A DNA stretch of 30,609 bases from contig WRFK01000001.1 of assembly GCA_009778835.1 (NCBI GenBank), positions 1-30,609 of the forward strand, read 5' to 3'. Shown here piece after piece: positions 2,662 to 30,609 of this stretch. This stretch comes from Spirochaetaceae bacterium. Lineage in GTDB: Bacteria; Spirochaetota; Spirochaetia; CADAEX01. Under the pieces are notes generated by a model. The model was given only the letters and a program-made list of their open reading frames with translations, did not search any database and had not been told where the DNA came from. The translations under genes were made by a program, and so were the position numbers. Each line of letters opens with the position of its first letter. Within the stretch, counting starts at the first letter, position 1.

Positions 2662-4183
2662 GGGAAGCTGCCTCTTCCGTAAGCTGGTCAAGAGATGTAC
2701 AAAACTTTATTGCTTTTTCAAAAATGCCGTTATCCGGAGTTTTCCCGCCATATGCCAAGTCTGTCCATGATAAAACAAGATCGTTAAAACCATCAGCATT
2801 GCGTGCTTTTGCTTTTTTAACTATAGACAGGCAATCATATTCTGTTGCATCAAGAGGAAATTCCAAATCGCTTTGTATTGAATAGATAACAATAGCTGCC
2901 AGGAAACATTTTGCCCAGGCATCGCGAATCAGCCCTTGATTATGCAACAAGGTTGCTTCTGCAAGCAGTTCCCCGGGGTCTGCGAATCCTGCGATTGTCG
3001 AAAAAGAGCTTTTCCATTTTTTTTCTTTTTTACCGCTCACTGCGCTGTTTTTCTTTAACTTATAAAGTCTTAATGTTATATATCCCACAGCAAATATAAT
3101 TGCCAATATAAAAATTGCAAAAAGCAAAAACCCAAAAAATTCTTTTATTTTTTCGATCCAGCCCCAATTTATTTTTGGCAGCTCTTTTGGCGCTTTTGGG
3201 TTCTTGAGCCTGATGCCCCAGGTATCTGTGTTGCCGCCAAAGTCCGGGGAACTTAGAATCTGCTTTAAAACATCTGTTGGCGCATCTGCGCTGGTCTGTT
3301 TAAAACTCTGGTTTTGTTCCGCATAAACACTTTGTAAAGGAGAAAGGATTAAAAATAATCCTATTGAAATAAAGATAATTGTTTTTAGTATGGTTGAAGA
3401 ACCCACAACTATGGATGAAGATCCAGTAACGCGAGAGGCTACTAAAGATTGCTTTTGTTTTACGAAATTTCGCAATGATAATTGAATATCCCATCCTTCA
3501 ACCTCAATCCTGCTATTAATGTAAATACCAAAACCCATACATACATAAAGAGGTTCTATGAGAATAAGATTAAGGCATACTGCGCAAAAAACAAGAAGTT
3601 CAATTGTATCTATGTATTGCCATAAAGAAGCAAGAGGTATTATATGAATCATCTCAAGGAGAAGAACAGCAAAAAGTATTTCTCCTATAAGAAGAGAAAA
3701 GAAAATAACAGTTGTTACGATTGTAAGAGAAGAACAAAAATTTAAGCCGCCGGCTTCGAGTGTTTTTATTCTTGTTCTGGCAGCTTTGCCTGAAAGCTGT
3801 TCCAAAGTTCTGACTGGCATACGTGCTGCCCGCCATATACTAAACCGCCGCCATAGCAGGTCTCCGGTAAGAGCAGTAAAGAAGGATTTAAAAAAGCCTT
3901 TTATTATTCTGGAGAATGTTGCCTGCGGTTCGAAAAAGCGTACAGAAATAACATGAAGCACAGGGCGGGCAAAAAGGGGTTTTAACCACCAGAGTAAAAT
4001 ATATGACCATGGCCGCTCATGCAGGGGAGAGAGCCGAAGAAAAACAGCAACAGCAATGAAAGGCAATACCATCAGGATAATGAAATAAAAAAAATTATTT
4101 CTCCATAAAAGTATTCCTGAGTCCGCAGCTTCCCAACTGCTTCTTTGGCGCAGTTTAAGAGAGCTTGTCAAAGGTTCAGCCAT
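2654..4183 (-). CDS. Multi-pass membrane protein with C-terminal DUF4129-like domain
   Basis: LRQRSSWEAADSG start, RIEVEGWDIQL motif, several TM segments, C-terminal DATEYDCL...WTDLAYGG; operon context. Confidence 0.7.
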   Translation of the reverse strand: MAEPLTSSLKLRQRSSWEAADSGILLWRNNFFYFIILMVLPFIAVAVFLRLSPLHERPWSYILLWWLKPLFARPVLHVISVRFFEPQATFSRIIKGFFKSFFTALTGDLLWRRFSIWRAARMPVRTLEQLSGKAARTRIKTLEAGGLNFCSSLTIVTTVIFFSLLIGEILFAVLLLEMIHIIPLASLWQYIDTIELLVFCAVCLNLILIEPLYVCMGFGIYINSRIEVEGWDIQLSLRNFVKQKQSLVASRVTGSSSIVVGSSTILKTIIFISIGLFLILSPLQSVYAEQNQSFKQTSADAPTDVLKQILSSPDFGGNTDTWGIRLKNPKAPKELPKINWGWIEKIKEFFGFLLFAIFILAIIFAVGYITLRLYKLKKNSAVSGKKEKKWKSSFSTIAGFADPGELLAEATLLHNQGLIRDAWAKCFLAAIVIYSIQSDLEFPLDATEYDCLSIVKKAKARNADGFNDLVLSWTDLAYGGKTPDNGIFEKAIKFCTSLDQLTEEAASHA

Positions 4184-5138
4184 TTTTTACCCGCCCTGTG
4201 AATATAAAATAGAGGTATAAAAAAAGCCAGCCTGCAATGCCTGCAATATAGCGCGCTGCCAAGGGTATCTGATGTTTGGATGACCAAAATGCTTCGATAA
4301 CTGCTGCAATAACAAGTAAAATAGTGCTGCCGGTTATTAATGGGATAGCTGTTTTTCCTGCAATACGCAAAGATGCTTGCCTTGTTAGCCCTTTTGTTAC
4401 AAAAAGGCTATAGCCAAGAATTAATCCTGCATGGGCGCTTAAAATAATTGCAGAAAGCTCAAAACTGCTGTGTCCTATTATAAAAGGGAAAAATGTTTGG
4501 GAAAATCCTTTGTTGATTATATGGGCTGCTGCAGTGCCAAAAAAAAGAGCATTAAAGGAAAGGATAAAAAGGCTGCCCACTCCGGCAAGAATACCTCCTG
4601 CAAAAGTTCTGAATGCAATTGAAATATTGTTATATATGTAAAAACCAAACATATCTGCATCTGAACTTACATTTCTTGGTGTAAGGAAATGGGCGCTTTC
4701 GGGATCATACATTGTTTCAATTTGCGCTGCCTGGTTTTCAGGCATTATTTCATAGACAAAATCGGGAAATTTGAGACATAGCGCTATTGTAAAAAAAGCG
4801 ATTCCATAAAAAATAAGGTGGGCAATAGCGATCCCTTTCCATGTGGCTCTTATTGAGCAGGGAAAAGTTTTGAGAATAAAATCCGAAAACTTTCTAAGCG
4901 ACAATGTGCGCTGACCATATAATAGCTGATTTCCTTCAAGAACAAGGCGATTAAGCCTCTCTATAAGAGCAGGATCAAATGCATGTGCGCGAGCAGTGTT
5001 GAGGTCTTGCGTTAGCTCCCGAAAGGCTTTTGGAAACCATGAGGCTTGAGTTTTTATCTCCTTGAATTCCCCGGTTACAACCCCTTCTATTTTATTCCAG
5101 AGTTGCTGGCGGCGTTTAACAAAATTTTGTTGGGTCAT
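4176..5138 (-). CDS. Stage II sporulation protein M (SpoIIM/DUF95) family membrane protein
   Basis: FYIYNNISIAF, GHSSFELSAIILS, AAVIEAFWS motifs. ATG 5138 forms an ATGA overlap with the RDD stop. Confidence 0.85.
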   Translation of the reverse strand: MTQQNFVKRRQQLWNKIEGVVTGEFKEIKTQASWFPKAFRELTQDLNTARAHAFDPALIERLNRLVLEGNQLLYGQRTLSLRKFSDFILKTFPCSIRATWKGIAIAHLIFYGIAFFTIALCLKFPDFVYEIMPENQAAQIETMYDPESAHFLTPRNVSSDADMFGFYIYNNISIAFRTFAGGILAGVGSLFILSFNALFFGTAAAHIINKGFSQTFFPFIIGHSSFELSAIILSAHAGLILGYSLFVTKGLTRQASLRIAGKTAIPLITGSTILLVIAAVIEAFWSSKHQIPLAARYIAGIAGWLFLYLYFIFTGRVKNG

Positions 5139-21170: not shown

Positions 21171-23909
21171 TTATTCACTATATTTTGTATCGCCTGAATC
21201 GGCAGCAATTCCCATGCCATAACCATCAGGAATAATAGGATACTGAACAATATTATCAAAGTTAGGATCAACTATATTTGGGTTGTCTGCATTACTACCT
21301 GCAATCATTCGGTAAATCATATTACTGCCTGTTGCAAGAGCTTTAGCCGCTTCTTTTTTTGCCTGTACAACTTTATCTTCGAGTTTATTATCACCCTTAA
21401 TCTCAATAATTTGGAAACTGCCATTCTTCATTTCAACTAAAAAATCAGGGTAGTAGTTCCGATAACGGTATGATTCAGGGTCTGTATATCCAATGGCAAA
21501 ATCGGTTTTACTTTTATCGGTAAACATGCCAGTAAAATAGATATTTTTTACTTCTTTATTTAAAAGGAACTGAATAAAACATTCCAATTCAGGTTTTGAA
21601 TCAAAACAATAGTGAGATGCGTGGAAACTCTTGTTTTTATAATCGATAAATCTCTTTTCCTCAAAATGAGCAACCAACCCAGGGTCGGTGTAAAACTCAT
21701 AAAAGTCTAATACCCCTTCAGGCTTTTTCAATAAAACAATTTCTCTTTCAATCTCTGATGATTCAATATTAATATTATAAATAGCAGTAAATATCTTTGG
21801 AATAATTTCATCATATAGTATTTCATTATAGTCATTCACTCTATTAAGTATTTTACTAATACCGCTAATAGATTTCTCCAGGATTGCCTCAATCTTGAAC
21901 GCCCCAGTATCAGGAAAAAACCGTGCAATTTCAAAAACCAGTGTATACTCGCTAAATCTTACTTTTTCTGCAATATCGGTCACAACTGCCTTTTTATCCT
22001 GAACCGTCATTGAAAGATTTGTTTTTTCTGTGACCGTCTGCTGGTATTTGGTAACATCAATACTGTCAATATAAAAGTCAATCGGTTCTATAACATCATT
22101 CTTTCTAATATTATACTTAACCAATTTTTCCTTTATCGTGATTTTTCGCGGAGGGGGTAACATTCTTACTTTTATTGATTCATTTTTATTCTTATTATTA
22201 TTGGAAAGGTCTTTAATACTCATATTAAAGTTCTTATTCAATTCAGCGTCTAATATATCATAATTTGCTTTGGATAAATAAACTGTTGCTGTTTCCTGTT
22301 TTGGAGCTTCGTTGTCTGCTCTTATCTGTCGCATACAACGCATGGTGCTCTGTAAAACAAAAACTTTGGAAAAAGAATCACGGTACAATGCAACACCAAA
22401 CAAAGAACGACAGTTCCAGCCTTCTTTCCCTTTACCGCACAAAAGAATAAACTGCTTTTTTGAGCCTTCAGTACCAACAACATCTAAATTGTTAAAATGC
22501 CTAATTTCGTCATTACCAGTAAGGTCAGGATTACCATCACCCACATTTACAAGTATTGTAGAAATATCTATGCCTTTTTCTGCTAAAAGTTTTTCAAGAG
22601 TAGGTTTTACTTCTTTTCGTATCTCATCAACAGTAGAAGTAAATATTGCGATTTTCGGCAGCAACCCTTCAAAAGTTCTTTTTTTATAAATATCAAGAAA
22701 ACCAGGAACTTTATTACCTTCTGTATCAGTATAGCCATTCACTACGGCTCTTAAAAACTCGATATCTTTTACATTTCCAAAACCTTTAATATCGACTTCT
22801 TTTAAGTATTCAGCTCTTATTGCCTGTTTAAGACCGCAGGCGTAGACAACCTCCGGTAGTACCTGCCGTTCTACATAAGGCGTACCAGTAAAATTATAAC
22901 AAGCGACAACTTGCGTATTGTATTTCTTTAACTCCTCTGCAAGAAGATTTATAGTCGTTCTAAAACTTGTAACTTTACCGCCTAATAAATCATCTTTAAG
23001 TTTTGAACCAAACAAATGATGCGCCTCGTCAACATACACTCCAAGTTGTGGCAACCGGCATAATTTTTGAAACCTCTCATTCGGTGGCAGTAAAGTTTCA
23101 TCACTGTTTAAATCTTCATCATCTAAAATTGAAGATAGCAAACTACTAGCATACATTTTATCAACAGGCGATTTTTCTTTATGTGATTTCTTCACTATAA
23201 TTTTCTGATTATTGGTGATAATGATATTCATTATTGACTTGTCAATCGTATTAAGTGTAGTGCTTGTATCTTCCAGGAAATGAATTTTAATATTAGCATC
23301 TAAAATAAAAGCATATTCTGACGGTACAACTAAAGTTTTATCAAAATCTATAATTTCACTTGCCAATGTTTGTAAAACAGTTTTATCTGGTGCAAAAATC
23401 AAAGCATTATGACAATACGTTTTTTCTTTCGGATATTTATTCGCCAATAAAAACTCATAAAAAATACACGTTGCTATCAAACGGCTTTTACCTAGTCCCA
23501 TTGTCAAAGCGTAAATATAATTTGGATAATCTGTCCTGAATTGTTCCAGTTGCTTGAACAATACTTCTGTTTGTTCTTTTGTCTGTTGGTCAAACAGCCC
23601 CAAGCGTTCATTCGCATAATAAGACCGTTCGGAAAAATCCCCTTCTTTTTTTACCCACTGCTCAAATATTTCAATTACCTGCTTATTTTCAAAAAACTCT
23701 TTTATTAACACATACATTTCAAGTGCTTCGAATTGAGGCGGTCTAAGATAAGCTTCCGGTCTTTCTTTTCTGTCATTATAGGCAAGGAACGTTTTTGTCA
23801 ATGGTTTGTACCGTGAACGTATTTTTCCTCGTGCGTCCTCGTAGAATCCCCACAACTGTTCATAAAAGGCAAACTGTTCGTTATAGCTATCAATTTTCTT
23901 TTTTGCCAT
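21171..23909 (-). CDS. res: Type III restriction endonuclease subunit (SF2 helicase plus nuclease)
   Basis: LTMGLGKS, VDEAHH, NFTGTP, GKEGWN, LQSTMRCMR; C-terminal YYPDFLV...IEIKG. Starts 2 nt after the mod stop. Confidence 0.88.
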   Translation of the reverse strand: MAKKKIDSYNEQFAFYEQLWGFYEDARGKIRSRYKPLTKTFLAYNDRKERPEAYLRPPQFEALEMYVLIKEFFENKQVIEIFEQWVKKEGDFSERSYYANERLGLFDQQTKEQTEVLFKQLEQFRTDYPNYIYALTMGLGKSRLIATCIFYEFLLANKYPKEKTYCHNALIFAPDKTVLQTLASEIIDFDKTLVVPSEYAFILDANIKIHFLEDTSTTLNTIDKSIMNIIITNNQKIIVKKSHKEKSPVDKMYASSLLSSILDDEDLNSDETLLPPNERFQKLCRLPQLGVYVDEAHHLFGSKLKDDLLGGKVTSFRTTINLLAEELKKYNTQVVACYNFTGTPYVERQVLPEVVYACGLKQAIRAEYLKEVDIKGFGNVKDIEFLRAVVNGYTDTEGNKVPGFLDIYKKRTFEGLLPKIAIFTSTVDEIRKEVKPTLEKLLAEKGIDISTILVNVGDGNPDLTGNDEIRHFNNLDVVGTEGSKKQFILLCGKGKEGWNCRSLFGVALYRDSFSKVFVLQSTMRCMRQIRADNEAPKQETATVYLSKANYDILDAELNKNFNMSIKDLSNNNKNKNESIKVRMLPPPRKITIKEKLVKYNIRKNDVIEPIDFYIDSIDVTKYQQTVTEKTNLSMTVQDKKAVVTDIAEKVRFSEYTLVFEIARFFPDTGAFKIEAILEKSISGISKILNRVNDYNEILYDEIIPKIFTAIYNINIESSEIEREIVLLKKPEGVLDFYEFYTDPGLVAHFEEKRFIDYKNKSFHASHYCFDSKPELECFIQFLLNKEVKNIYFTGMFTDKSKTDFAIGYTDPESYRYRNYYPDFLVEMKNGSFQIIEIKGDNKLEDKVVQAKKEAAKALATGSNMIYRMIAGSNADNPNIVDPNFDNIVQYPIIPDGYGMGIAADSGDTKYSE

Positions 23910-26237: not shown

Positions 26238-26313
26238 GCCTATTGTTTGCAGTAAAACCTAAAATCGCAGTTTTCGCATACCCTGTTTGATGAACTTTTA
26301 TGTTCAAAGTTTC
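26238..26313 (-). pseudogene. Detached 3' end of a helicase-nuclease gene
   Basis: Encodes NFEHKSSSNRVCENCDFRFYCKQ-stop; 26247-26313 matches 29518-29584 at 56/67 nt by manual alignment. Confidence 0.85.
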
Positions 26314-27715: not shown

Positions 27716-27949
27716 ATGCAGGGCGATACCTATGCGGAAGCCTTTGAAAATATCCAGGATGCAATGGAAGGCTGGATTGAAACAAAACTGGAAAATGGGC
27801 TTTCAATTCCAAAACCCGTTGATGAAAGCCAATATAGCGGTAAATTTGTCCTTCGTGTTCCTAAAACCCTTCATGCTCGTCTTGTCATGGAGGCTGAAAA
27901 AGAAGGTGTGTCGCTTAATCAATATGCGCTGTATCGGCTGAGTATGTAG
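27716..27949 (+). pseudogene. hicB: 5'-truncated HicB-family antitoxin
   Basis: Starts at MQGDT.EAFENI.DA; C-terminal SGKFVLRVPKTLH ribbon-helix-helix intact; in-frame stop at 27689; no hicA nearby. Confidence 0.75.
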
Positions 27950-27993
27950 TAGCGTTGTGGGATACTGTATTAATTAAGGGAGATTCCTCTCGT

Positions 27994-28092
27994 GATGTCG
28001 ATGTTATTGAATGGTTACAGAGTGGAGGAAGGGGCTGGCAGACCCGAATGAATGATATTTTTCGGGAGGCGATGTTACATTCGGAATCTTAA
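27994..28092 (+). pseudogene. C-terminal fragment of a BrnA/DUF4415 antitoxin
   Basis: Manual translation DVDVIEWLQSGGRGWQTRMNDIFREAMLHSES-stop matches the D.DV..W....G.GWQTR.N motif; below the ORF-track length cutoff. Confidence 0.75.
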
Positions 28093-28153
28093 CTAGACTC
28101 TATAAAGCAAGAAGGAATTCTAAAGTGACCATGGAAGAAAGAGAAAAAGATTT

Positions 28154-29392
28154 ATGACTTACATTACAATTAAAGATCAACGCGTTGATCAAATAAGGTG
28201 TTCTAGCAAAAAAACAGATGTTTCTCCGGGGTGGATTATAGTGCCTGATGGCTTTAAAGGCTCCCATGGTGATCATATTGATTGGTTCACAGAAGATTGG
28301 ATTCGTATTCCAGATGATAAACTAATAGAGCTGGGAAAACGTTTTGATAAACGTGGTCGATATTATAGTAAAACCGCAATCGGACGGGTGTGGGATATTT
28401 TATACCTTGATATGGATCCTGGATCAGATTGGACAAATCTGCCTCCTCTTGAAAATGAACCTTACCAAAAATTTGATGAAGCTAGTGGACAATGGGTTAT
28501 TGATATAAAAAACAAATCTGCCTTAGAGAATATGTCATTGATGGGACATTTAGATCCTTATAATAAAATAGAAGTCCCAGAATTCATCTATCATTATACA
28601 AGCTTAGATGGTTTTATAAAAATTTTAGATTCAAAAACCTTTTTTATGTTTAATATTTACCAAATGAATGACTATAAAGAAAATGTGACAATATTTGATG
28701 TTTTGACTAGAATAATATCTCAAAAAAAATCTTTTATTCCAGATGATTATCTGAAAAAACTTGATGAAGTTTTTAAGAATTTTGATATAGCCTTTACATT
28801 TGTAAGTTGTTTTACAGAATTGAGAGATTCTCTTTCTCAATGGAGATCTTATGGGGATGATGGTAATGGAATTTGTATGATAATAAATCCTAAAAATCTC
28901 GGAATTAATTATTCTTTGCCTTCCCCTAATATTTCGAGTAAATGTGTTTCATTCCATAATGTTGTTTATGCAACTGAGCAACAGGATAAAATAATCGGAG
29001 AAATATTAGATCAAGCTATAAGGAAAAATGGAGCTATAGATTTTGCAAATCATGTGTATGAACTTATTGCAAGATTTGCTCCAATATTCAAAATCAAAGA
29101 ATTCCAAGAAGAGAAGGAATGGCGAATTATTTATAAAACACCACTTTTAGAGAAAGAAACCCTTGGAGTATTATCGCTCGATTCAAGACATGATATTGGA
29201 TTTATAAACACACGAAATAATTTGAGATCTTACTTTCCACTGCAAATTGATAAAAGAAAATTCATTGATTCAGTAACTGGTATTATTTTGGGGCCAAAAT
29301 CAATAATACCTCTTATGGAAATATCAACACTATTAAATACAAAAGGCTATCGAAATATTGAAATAAGAAAATCTAGAATATCCTATAGATAA
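28154..29392 (+). CDS. DUF2971-domain protein with ~125-aa N-terminal phage tail-associated-like segment
   Basis: YHYTSLDG, MND..E, VSCFTE..DSLSQWRSYG..GNGIC, FQEEKEWRII, IILGPK; N-terminal W93-D117 motif. Confidence 0.8.
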   Translation: MTYITIKDQRVDQIRCSSKKTDVSPGWIIVPDGFKGSHGDHIDWFTEDWIRIPDDKLIELGKRFDKRGRYYSKTAIGRVWDILYLDMDPGSDWTNLPPLENEPYQKFDEASGQWVIDIKNKSALENMSLMGHLDPYNKIEVPEFIYHYTSLDGFIKILDSKTFFMFNIYQMNDYKENVTIFDVLTRIISQKKSFIPDDYLKKLDEVFKNFDIAFTFVSCFTELRDSLSQWRSYGDDGNGICMIINPKNLGINYSLPSPNISSKCVSFHNVVYATEQQDKIIGEILDQAIRKNGAIDFANHVYELIARFAPIFKIKEFQEEKEWRIIYKTPLLEKETLGVLSLDSRHDIGFINTRNNLRSYFPLQIDKRKFIDSVTGIILGPKSIIPLMEISTLLNTKGYRNIEIRKSRISYR

Positions 29393-29507: not shown

Positions 29508-30609
29508 CTAATCCCTCTTGCAGTAGAACCTAAAATCGCAGTTTGCACACACCCTACCTGATGAACTCTTATGCTCAAAATTCCGATCCTGTATCTTGCG
29601 GACAATATGGTCAAAATCTTTTATTGTTTCTTTTATCTCCATTTTGGATGGATCAAAACTGATAGTTGGTGCACCATCTTCTTCCCCAGTATAATATAAA
29701 TGTAGTTTATTGACTTTCTTTCCTGTATTCTGTTCTACAAGATAAGCGTATACCTGTAATTGTTTTTTATAGCGATCAATTTTTTCTTTTTCCTTTACTA
29801 AATCAGGTTTTTTCTCGGACTTAAAATCAATAATTTCTACTACATCTTGACTATCGATATCTGGACTGCGGATAAGGTCAATTTTACCGTCAATTATATA
29901 ATCTTCTTTAACAAGGCTAACTCCAACTTCAGCTTCCACAACCGCTTCCCATTTATCTTGGTGCTTTTCAGCGTAACGAAGTATACTCTTTAGTGCTGCT
30001 TTTAACTGCGGTTCGTTCAGGTAAGTGTGTTCTGCCTTTGATAGTGAATCATAATTTGTATCAAACCAAGATGTTATGTTTCCTTCACTTATAATTTCCT
30101 TTTCACCTCTGAGTGCGGTTTTATGAATATCCTCGATTGTCTGATGAACAAGGCGTCCATAAAGAGTAGCACCAATCCGTATCGGAGAAAACTCCAGCAC
30201 ATTGAAAAACTTATACTGCACACCACAAGTTTCATAAACGCTAATATCTGAAGTGAAAGCATAACTTTCCTTTATGTTTACATCTTTAATTTTTTCAAAT
30301 TCTAACTTTGCAATATCTATTTCTTTAGAAAAAATAGAATGTGCATCATTAAATTGATCTTTAAAATATTTATTTGGATCTCCCTTTGTTTCAGGACTGA
30401 TAAGAACCAGCAGATTTTGTGCCCTTGAAAAAGCAGTATAGTATAGTCTCCAAAAATCAAAATATTTTATTCTTTCCCTTGGCTCAAATGGTTGACGATG
30501 AAAATAGTCTCTTTCAACTTCGCCGATTATATTATCGTATGTATCTGTAGCTGAACTAGAAAGTGACCCAACCATTACTATTGGGAATTCCATTCCTTTT
30601 GACTGGTGA
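29508..30609 (-). CDS. UvrD/REP-like helicase fused to PD-(D/E)XK nuclease, 3' part only
   Basis: Frame open to the window edge: HQSKGMEFP, RLYYTAFSRAQ, then GRLVH, GKIDLI, IDFKS and Cys set C...CANCDFRFYC. The ORF-track start at 30593 is internal. Confidence 0.88.
   Translation of the reverse strand, partial: HQSKGMEFPIVMVGSLSSSATDTYDNIIGEVERDYFHRQPFEPRERIKYFDFWRLYYTAFSRAQNLLVLISPETKGDPNKYFKDQFNDAHSIFSKEIDIAKLEFEKIKDVNIKESYAFTSDISVYETCGVQYKFFNVLEFSPIRIGATLYGRLVHQTIEDIHKTALRGEKEIISEGNITSWFDTNYDSLSKAEHTYLNEPQLKAALKSILRYAEKHQDKWEAVVEAEVGVSLVKEDYIIDGKIDLIRSPDIDSQDVVEIIDFKSEKKPDLVKEKEKIDRYKKQLQVYAYLVEQNTGKKVNKLHLYYTGEEDGAPTISFDPSKMEIKETIKDFDHIVRKIQDRNFEHKSSSGRVCANCDFRFYCKRD

Follow-up and report, generated by a model that had tools for sequence, protein, structure and literature searches.

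A Tfa-DUF2971 fusion gene in a defence island

The window, i.e. the whole stretch of DNA analysed, comprises 30,609 nt of a Spirochaetaceae contig (WRFK01000001.1, assembly GCA_009778835.1). Near its right end we found one intact open reading frame (ORF) of 412 aa with zero internal stops (protein P0001; Table 1), as had been described from the letters alone by an earlier sequence-only reading. The protein has two parts: an N-terminal domain related to phage tail-fibre-assembly (Tfa) chaperones and a DUF2971 protein.

The gene sits in a defence island, and its neighbours in the window are a type III restriction-modification pair, an HTH regulator, AbiH (E 1e-26), HicB and BrnA antitoxin fragments, a UvrD/PD-(D/E)XK helicase-nuclease, FRG and Abi_C. 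No Macro-domain gene is among them; the only one of the assembly (genome 59% complete) is on contig C159. A 3.27-kb block that holds AbiH, the antitoxin fragments and the fusion gene is flanked by the two copies of a 65-nt direct repeat. As the right copy coincides with the 3' end of the helicase-nuclease gene, the block seems to have been inserted with duplication or replacement of this part of the gene.

Two truncated antitoxin remnants, a 77-aa HicB-family protein and a 45-aa BrnA-like protein, lie directly upstream of the fusion gene (window 27716-28092). The BrnA-like remnant matches the last 27 BrnA positions only, and no toxin gene for either remnant is visible in the window annotation. 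Elsewhere in the window (21171-23909, minus strand), a 911-aa type III Res-like protein has a TnsA-like endonuclease N-terminal domain at residues 804-868.

Table 1. Coordinates of the fusion gene, its parts and its flanks in the window, and of the prophage tail module elsewhere in the source genome
Feature	Position	Strand	Remarks
Whole gene, 412-aa fusion protein P0001 and stop codon	28154..29392	+	12 full-length homologues
Purine-rich stretch ahead of Met1, possible ribosome-binding site	28133..28148	+	Weaker in the window than in homologues
Tfa-type N-terminal fibre-binding domain (predicted by homology)	28154..28531	+	Residues 1-126; lacks the Tfa C-terminal helical domain
Trp/Asp/Pro-rich motif, last beta-hairpin of the Tfa N-domain	28430..28504	+	Residues 93-117; model strands 105-108 and 113-116
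Met127, apparent ancestral DUF2971 start codon and fusion junction	28532..28534	+	Nearly invariant; P0016-P0018 start there
Complete DUF2971 domain, DarT-like ADP-ribosyltransferase fold (predicted)	28532..29389	+	Residues 127-412
His147, candidate ART motif I, strand IYHYT	28592..28594	+	Nearly invariant
Tyr233, candidate ART motif II, in SQWRSYG	28850..28852	+	Invariant; start of Pfam core
Glu320-Lys-Glu322, candidate ExE motif III	29111..29119	+	Nearly invariant; end of Pfam core, start of strand 322-328
65-nt direct repeat, left copy	26247..26311		85% identical to 29518-29582
65-nt direct repeat, right copy	29518..29582		3' end of UvrD/PD-(D/E)XK gene
Prophage tail module, source genome contig C62 (L021)	2948-5882 of C62	Invertase on opposite strand	Tail fibre with glycine-rich C-terminus to holin

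Residues 1-126 belong to the tail-fibre-assembly family

We found P0001 residues 1-126 to be homologous along their full length to the N-terminal domain of stand-alone proteins of ~190 aa. In an exhaustive HMM search of 1.84 billion representatives, the N-domain profile retrieved 118 relatives (best E 1e-37), which are mostly stand-alone proteins of 185-200 aa matched over profile positions 1-125. The stand-alone relatives are 26-44% identical to P0001, and the best pairwise match has 44% identity over 133 residues, ungapped. The family phrog_105 'tail fiber assembly' was matched by 28 of the 42 stand-alone relatives tested, and the match covers the motif region and the helical tail. Residues 1-127 alone gave zero matches at E <= 1 against Pfam, PHROGs and NCBIfam and are therefore linked to Tfa transitively.

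Profile alignment by hhalign reached the classical Tfa proteins. The family that includes the stand-alone proteins aligned with lambda Tfa, Mu U and U', and Leptospira phage LE4 gp44 at a probability of 95.8% (E 7e-9), with P0001 residues 63-119 paired with lambda Tfa residues 68-119. The fused family's own profile gave the same alignment, but with E 8e-4 and a probability of 25%. The sequence-only reading had pointed to a lambdoid Tfa likeness for the motif at residues 93-117, and both the position and the likeness were borne out, as hhalign places the motif on the L.P..(x)EYQKW.G..WV.D stretch of lambda Tfa. In addition, P0001 residues 89-126 are 50% identical over 38 aa to LE4 gp44, whose gene is directly 3' of the phage LE4 tail fibre gene.

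The predicted shape of the domain was also compared. The AlphaFold (AF2) model of residues 1-135 has a pLDDT of 94.8, and its nearest ESM Atlas shapes are tail fiber assembly clusters with Caudo_TAP, Caudo_TAP_N and YomQ_N (TM 0.50-0.53 over 88-97 residues). Against 48,161 PDB chains, the sole above-noise match was 7YPX chain a (Z 3.4, residues 1-55), which is the 162-aa Pam3 chaperone gp25; the matched part is its fibre-binding beta-sandwich (gp25 residues 1-55). The N-domain profile gave chance-level matches only against PDB sequences, Foldseek of the model against BFVD and AlphaFold DB clusters gave nothing under E 0.05 (with the majority of matches unnamed), an ESM Atlas search by sequence features gave zero usable matches, and no relatives were found when IMG/VR viral contigs were scanned with N-domain patterns.

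Hence, residues 1-126 are the N-terminal domain of the tail-fibre-assembly chaperone family. The opposite outcome foreseen earlier, that residues 1-125 lack phage tail-protein similarity, is contradicted by the profile search, phrog_105, hhalign, the shape and the Pam3 gp25 match.

P0001 can be aligned with the 42 stand-alone relatives as far as residue ~133; they continue with a helical tail of ~60 aa, for which P0001 has no equivalent. Structures published for Mu Tfa and Pam3 gp25 show that the distal part of the fibre is bound by the variable N-terminal domain and that the conserved C-terminal helices trimerise and drive fibre assembly (PMC9608196). By the alignments, P0001 retains the half of Tfa that binds the fibre in these structures, with an enzyme in place of the trimerising helical half.

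Residues 127-412 are a predicted ADP-ribosyltransferase

The remainder of P0001 matches Pfam DUF2971 (PF11185) at residues 229-325 with 43.4 bits (cut-off 22, E 9e-11) and phrog_1762 over residues 121-411 (E 1e-22); in a six-frame search of the genome with PF11185, the fusion gene scored 46.5 bits. The PADLOC model PDC-S31 was matched weakly and in part of the model only (best E 2.1e-6, 25.6 bits). The same genome has a second DUF2971 gene without the N-domain on contig C11 (L002; 6958-7227, 273-aa open frame, 29 bits).

The full-length P0001 model has a pLDDT of 75.6, and its best Foldseek match is DarT (7omv). By VIA-align, the full-length model matched DarT with Z 6.6, 6.3, 6.2 and 5.1 and Tpt1/KptA with Z 5.8; MbcT, scabin, pertussis toxin and others followed, so that the matches are almost exclusively proteins of the ADP-ribosyltransferase (ART) fold. 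Since these Z values are moderate, the fold assignment also leans on the literature, where DUF2971 is placed in the H-Y-E clade of ARTs beside DarT, AbiGi and Tox-ART-HYD1 and is described as having a motif II whose Tyr is strictly conserved and a motif III of the ExE type (PMC12522546). We infer the roles of H147, Y233, E320 and E322 from that work (PMC12522546).

DUF2971 motifs had previously been placed from about residue 145, and this agrees with our result, as the ART-type core begins at the YHYTS strand (residues 145-149); a weak Tox-ART-HYD1 match is at residues 145-164. Taken with the model, residues 127-412 are a full DUF2971 protein with a predicted DarT-like ADP-ribosyltransferase fold. 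The earlier description of DUF2971 as uncharacterised is outdated, since there is predicted enzymology (PMC12522546) and one tested anti-phage member: Aristaios, a DUF2971 protein of 316 aa, is a tested single-gene abortive-infection system (PMC11381338).

With both halves described, we considered whether P0001 is a phage or tailocin accessory, i.e. a Tfa-like protein carried on fibre tips or involved in prophage superinfection exclusion and not in host defence. Such a role would fit the observations that Mu Tfa remains on the mature fibre (PMC9608196) and that DUF2971 has a phage family (phrog_1762). However, the helical half that mediates fibre trimerisation and assembly (PMC9608196) is missing, and no phage structural genes are present in the window or around the three fused homologues examined. 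We consider an accessory role very improbable.

The fusion is conserved and its frame is kept

The sequence-only reading had proposed looking for full-length homologues with both parts, and we found 12 metagenomic ones in a search of 5.8 billion proteins, all with both parts in frame (63-82% identity, 100% coverage). The same search found shorter DUF2971 proteins of 40-60% identity, and P0016-P0018, which are among the closest of these, start exactly at the equivalent of Met127. Since Met127 is nearly invariant, a Tfa N-domain seems to have been placed ahead of an entire DUF2971 ORF, which retains its own start codon. The codon of Met130, the other internal methionine at which translation had been suggested to begin, is at 28541.

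Codon comparisons with two homologues gave dN/dS of 0.14-0.22 for residues 1-126 and 0.20-0.30 for residues 127-412; by this measure, both halves of the fusion are under purifying selection. Two homologues have a Shine-Dalgarno sequence (AGGA or GAGG) 4-5 nt ahead of the equivalent of Met1. We rejected an untranslated leader or pseudogene debris as the identity of the N-terminal region on the basis of dN/dS, the kept frame and the confident fold.

The fusion is absent from 185,579 species-representative genomes other than the source genome; the nearest DUF2971 gene among them is 41% identical and is in a Spirochaetia MAG. Thus far, the fused family is known from 13 metagenomic clusters only. 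In a tree of the enzyme half, the forms with the N-domain could share a single origin, but support is weak (53/46). P0015, a short DUF2971 form, is preceded by a Doc-type toxin gene, with no trace of an N-domain; since such close relatives do without the N-domain, it is dispensable for the enzyme itself.

The neighbours of the fused homologues examined all differ and are mostly toxin-antitoxin genes (ParE/Phd, HEPN/MNT and MazE-like, and in the window AbiH and the antitoxin fragments). This variation fits a single-gene unit with no conserved partner.

One metagenomic contig (ENA ERZ27257348) has the two parts as separate genes in different frames: P0063 (121 aa, N-domain, 3097-3462) and, after a 16-nt gap, P0016 (294 aa, DUF2971, 3479-4363). 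This split could reflect a frameshift in the copy or an error in sequencing, or the two-gene form may be genuine.

These data bear on whether the fusion is an evolutionary accident, in which a prophage deletion fused tfa to a downstream DUF2971 cargo gene, the N-domain is passive (aiding solubility or oligomerisation at most) and the product may start at Met127. The kept ancestral start at Met127, the paralogues without the N-domain and the P0063/P0016 relative all agree with an accident. Against it, purifying selection on the N-domain is at least as strong as on the enzyme, the frame has been held in 12 homologues with identities as low as 63%, Met1 follows a Shine-Dalgarno sequence in homologues, the N-domain is predicted to fold with a pLDDT of 95, and the fused genes are now outside prophage tail modules. 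We regard an accident as quite improbable.

Hence, the fusion is real and conserved, and selection since it arose argues that it is functional. A fusion unique to this genome and translated from Met127 or Met130, which had been raised as a possibility, does not agree with the 12 diverged homologues, the purifying selection on the N-domain and the Shine-Dalgarno sequences ahead of Met1. Since neither this possibility nor that of an N-terminal region unrelated to phage tail proteins held, the Tfa homology and the conserved fusion support the idea that a phage module was captured and fused to a DUF2971 effector.

Stand-alone relatives are Tfa chaperones of phages

P0085, a stand-alone Tfa-like protein with 38% identity to P0001, is also encoded in the source genome, on contig C62 (L021). 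The gene order there is a 430-aa tail fibre/tail protein at 2948-4240 (phrog_1640, phrog_6518), a DNA invertase (phrog_125, E 1e-46), P0085, a receiver-domain gene, further genes and, last, a holin-like gene. The invertase between the fibre and Tfa suggests an invertible host-range segment. Two other stand-alone members adjoin a serine recombinase/invertase and phage genes. Hence, by homology, shape and gene position, the stand-alone proteins are Tfa chaperones, and phages with stand-alone members of the family occur in the source genome. The ENA samples that yielded several of the fused and stand-alone members have neighbouring accession numbers.

On two metagenomic contigs (L004 and L009), a stand-alone Tfa-like gene has a serine recombinase directly downstream and the end of the contig less than 300 nt upstream. 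Assemblies that stop at an invertible segment would look like this.

The Tfa N-domain was also seen in other combinations. P0080 (360 aa) has it joined to a part of ~250 aa that holds an HExxH motif, and in P0144 and P0165 it is joined to DUF4376. P0078 (344 aa, L022:456-1490) has a whole Tfa followed by a Pol-beta/MNT nucleotidyltransferase. In the ESM Atlas, a 61-member Pseudomonadota cluster of ~259 aa, 'phage-tail assembly protein-like', combines Caudo_TAP with a Macro domain by automatic labels. Macro domains bind or hydrolyse ADP-ribose. This Tfa-Macro cluster, for which we found no publication, could be a phage-side counterpart to the fusions of a Tfa domain with an ART.

Discussion

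So far, we have described a conserved gene in which a phage chaperone domain precedes a predicted ART. This architecture suggests that a part captured from a virus may serve the cell in recognising or targeting the tail fibres of phages. That the gene is a single-protein anti-phage system of the DUF2971 (Aristaios/PDC-S31) kind with a phage-derived recognition module is a reading to which we give an even chance.

The solved Tfa-fibre complexes of Mu and Pam3 indicate how recognition might work, as both show the N-domain clamped onto the distal tip of a nascent fibre (PMC9608196). The mechanism put forward by the sequence-only reading, with nascent tail fibres bound by the module and the effector set off as a result, would fit these structures. 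For this reason, the captured domain most likely binds tail-fibre tips produced late in infection. A fibre trimer can carry up to three chaperone N-domains; binding would therefore gather the ART domains or free them from an autoinhibited state. The activated enzyme would then spend NAD+ to ADP-ribosylate an essential target, perhaps DNA by analogy with DarT, and modification of this target would abort the infection. A likely origin is a deletion within a prophage by which tfa became fused to a DUF2971 cargo gene immediately 3' of it.

The N-domain may instead target and not sense. It would then bring the ART to the fibre or the fibre-Tfa complex as a substrate, or would compete against the Tfa of the phage as a dominant-negative chaperone unable to trimerise; with fibres modified or misfolded, progeny would be non-infective, and cell death would be unneeded. 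The fusion does keep the fibre-binding half and drop the trimerising half, and the 61-member Tfa-Macro cluster, by its automatic labels, could be understood as a response on the phage side, should fibres or their chaperones be ADP-ribosylated. However, the nearest structural relatives of the enzyme (DarT, Tpt1/KptA and scabin) act on nucleic acids, and the Aristaios phenotype is reported as abortive infection (PMC11381338). Targeting is, in our estimate, unlikely, and we prefer the sensor model, in which the ART is activated, to the model in which the fibre is the substrate.

A fuller version of the sensor model is offered as a tentative and rather unlikely proposal. The substrate-binding domain of a viral chaperone would have been exapted as a tail-fibre receptor, nascent trimers would template the assembly of a DarT-like ART and lead to abortive infection, and the phage Tfa-Macro proteins would be counter-defence. 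More broadly, we take the fusion to be a new form of a known family of single-gene defences, with an added sensing or targeting part for which we infer fibre binding; the proposed way of recognition would be unusual.

The fusion bears on how single-gene abortive-infection enzymes, such as those of the DUF2971/Aristaios kind, detect phage. For one clade, it offers an explanation that can be tested: the sensor may simply have been taken over from the phage, whose chaperone domain evolved for gripping the tips of tail fibres. Both candidate partners, a fibre together with its cognate Tfa, are encoded in the source genome. If the sensor is indeed of this kind, the fusion would clearly exemplify how bacterial immunity can recruit a recognition domain derived from a virus, and tail fibres would join the structural proteins that are sensed directly. 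It would also be a natural scaffold, as swapping Tfa N-domains might retarget the defence enzyme. If the counter-defence reading of the Tfa-Macro proteins is also true, tail-fibre assembly would be a battleground fought with ADP-ribosylation.

Comparison with known systems

Like Aristaios from the Lactococcus plasmid pUCCL641 (316 aa; PMC11381338) and PDC-S31, the fusion gene is a single DUF2971 gene with a predicted ADP-ribosyltransferase fold among defence genes. Unlike P0001, Aristaios has no N-terminal Tfa domain, and the similarity of P0001 to Aristaios/PDC-S31 is at the family level only. With tblastn of residues 127-412 against 72,556 plasmids, Lactococcus was not among the leading genera or the best 30 matches; the matches listed are Proteobacteria DUF2971 genes that are 25-28% identical.

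DarT of DarTG (PDB 7yk3, 7omv, 7omu and 8baq) gave the best structural matches of the C-terminal domain of P0001 (Z 5.1-6.6). In contrast to DarTG, P0001 has no adjacent DarG-type macrodomain antitoxin, and unlike DarT, its predicted enzyme domain carries large helical inserts.

With lambda Tfa, Mu gp50 (U) and Pam3 gp25 (Caudo_TAP; PDB 5YVQ, 7YPX), P0001 shares the N-terminal fibre-binding domain, including the conserved hairpin motif. Unlike these Tfa proteins, P0001 lacks the C-terminal helical trimerisation domain and has no adjacent tail fibre gene. Hence, P0001 is not a Tfa chaperone.

CapRel-SJ46 is reportedly a fused sensor-effector that binds the major capsid protein directly. By analogy, P0001 would be like CapRel-SJ46 and Avs/STAND in having, in one polypeptide, a part that recognises a late structural protein and a toxic enzyme part; the difference is that CapRel-SJ46 and Avs/STAND have host-evolved sensor folds, whereas the recognition part of P0001 is a phage chaperone domain. 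The Avs/STAND families are described as binding phage structural proteins (PMC13581612); the abstract of that paper does not list tail fibres as Avs targets, and its text gave no match to 'tail fib'.

Type II Thoeris is triggered by a side tail fibre with its chaperone (bioRxiv 10.64898/2026.06.04.730250). Unlike P0001, Thoeris is a two-gene TIR signalling system without a chaperone-derived domain; the likeness is in folded tail-fibre tips as the immune trigger, which is a feature of Thoeris and is here proposed for P0001.
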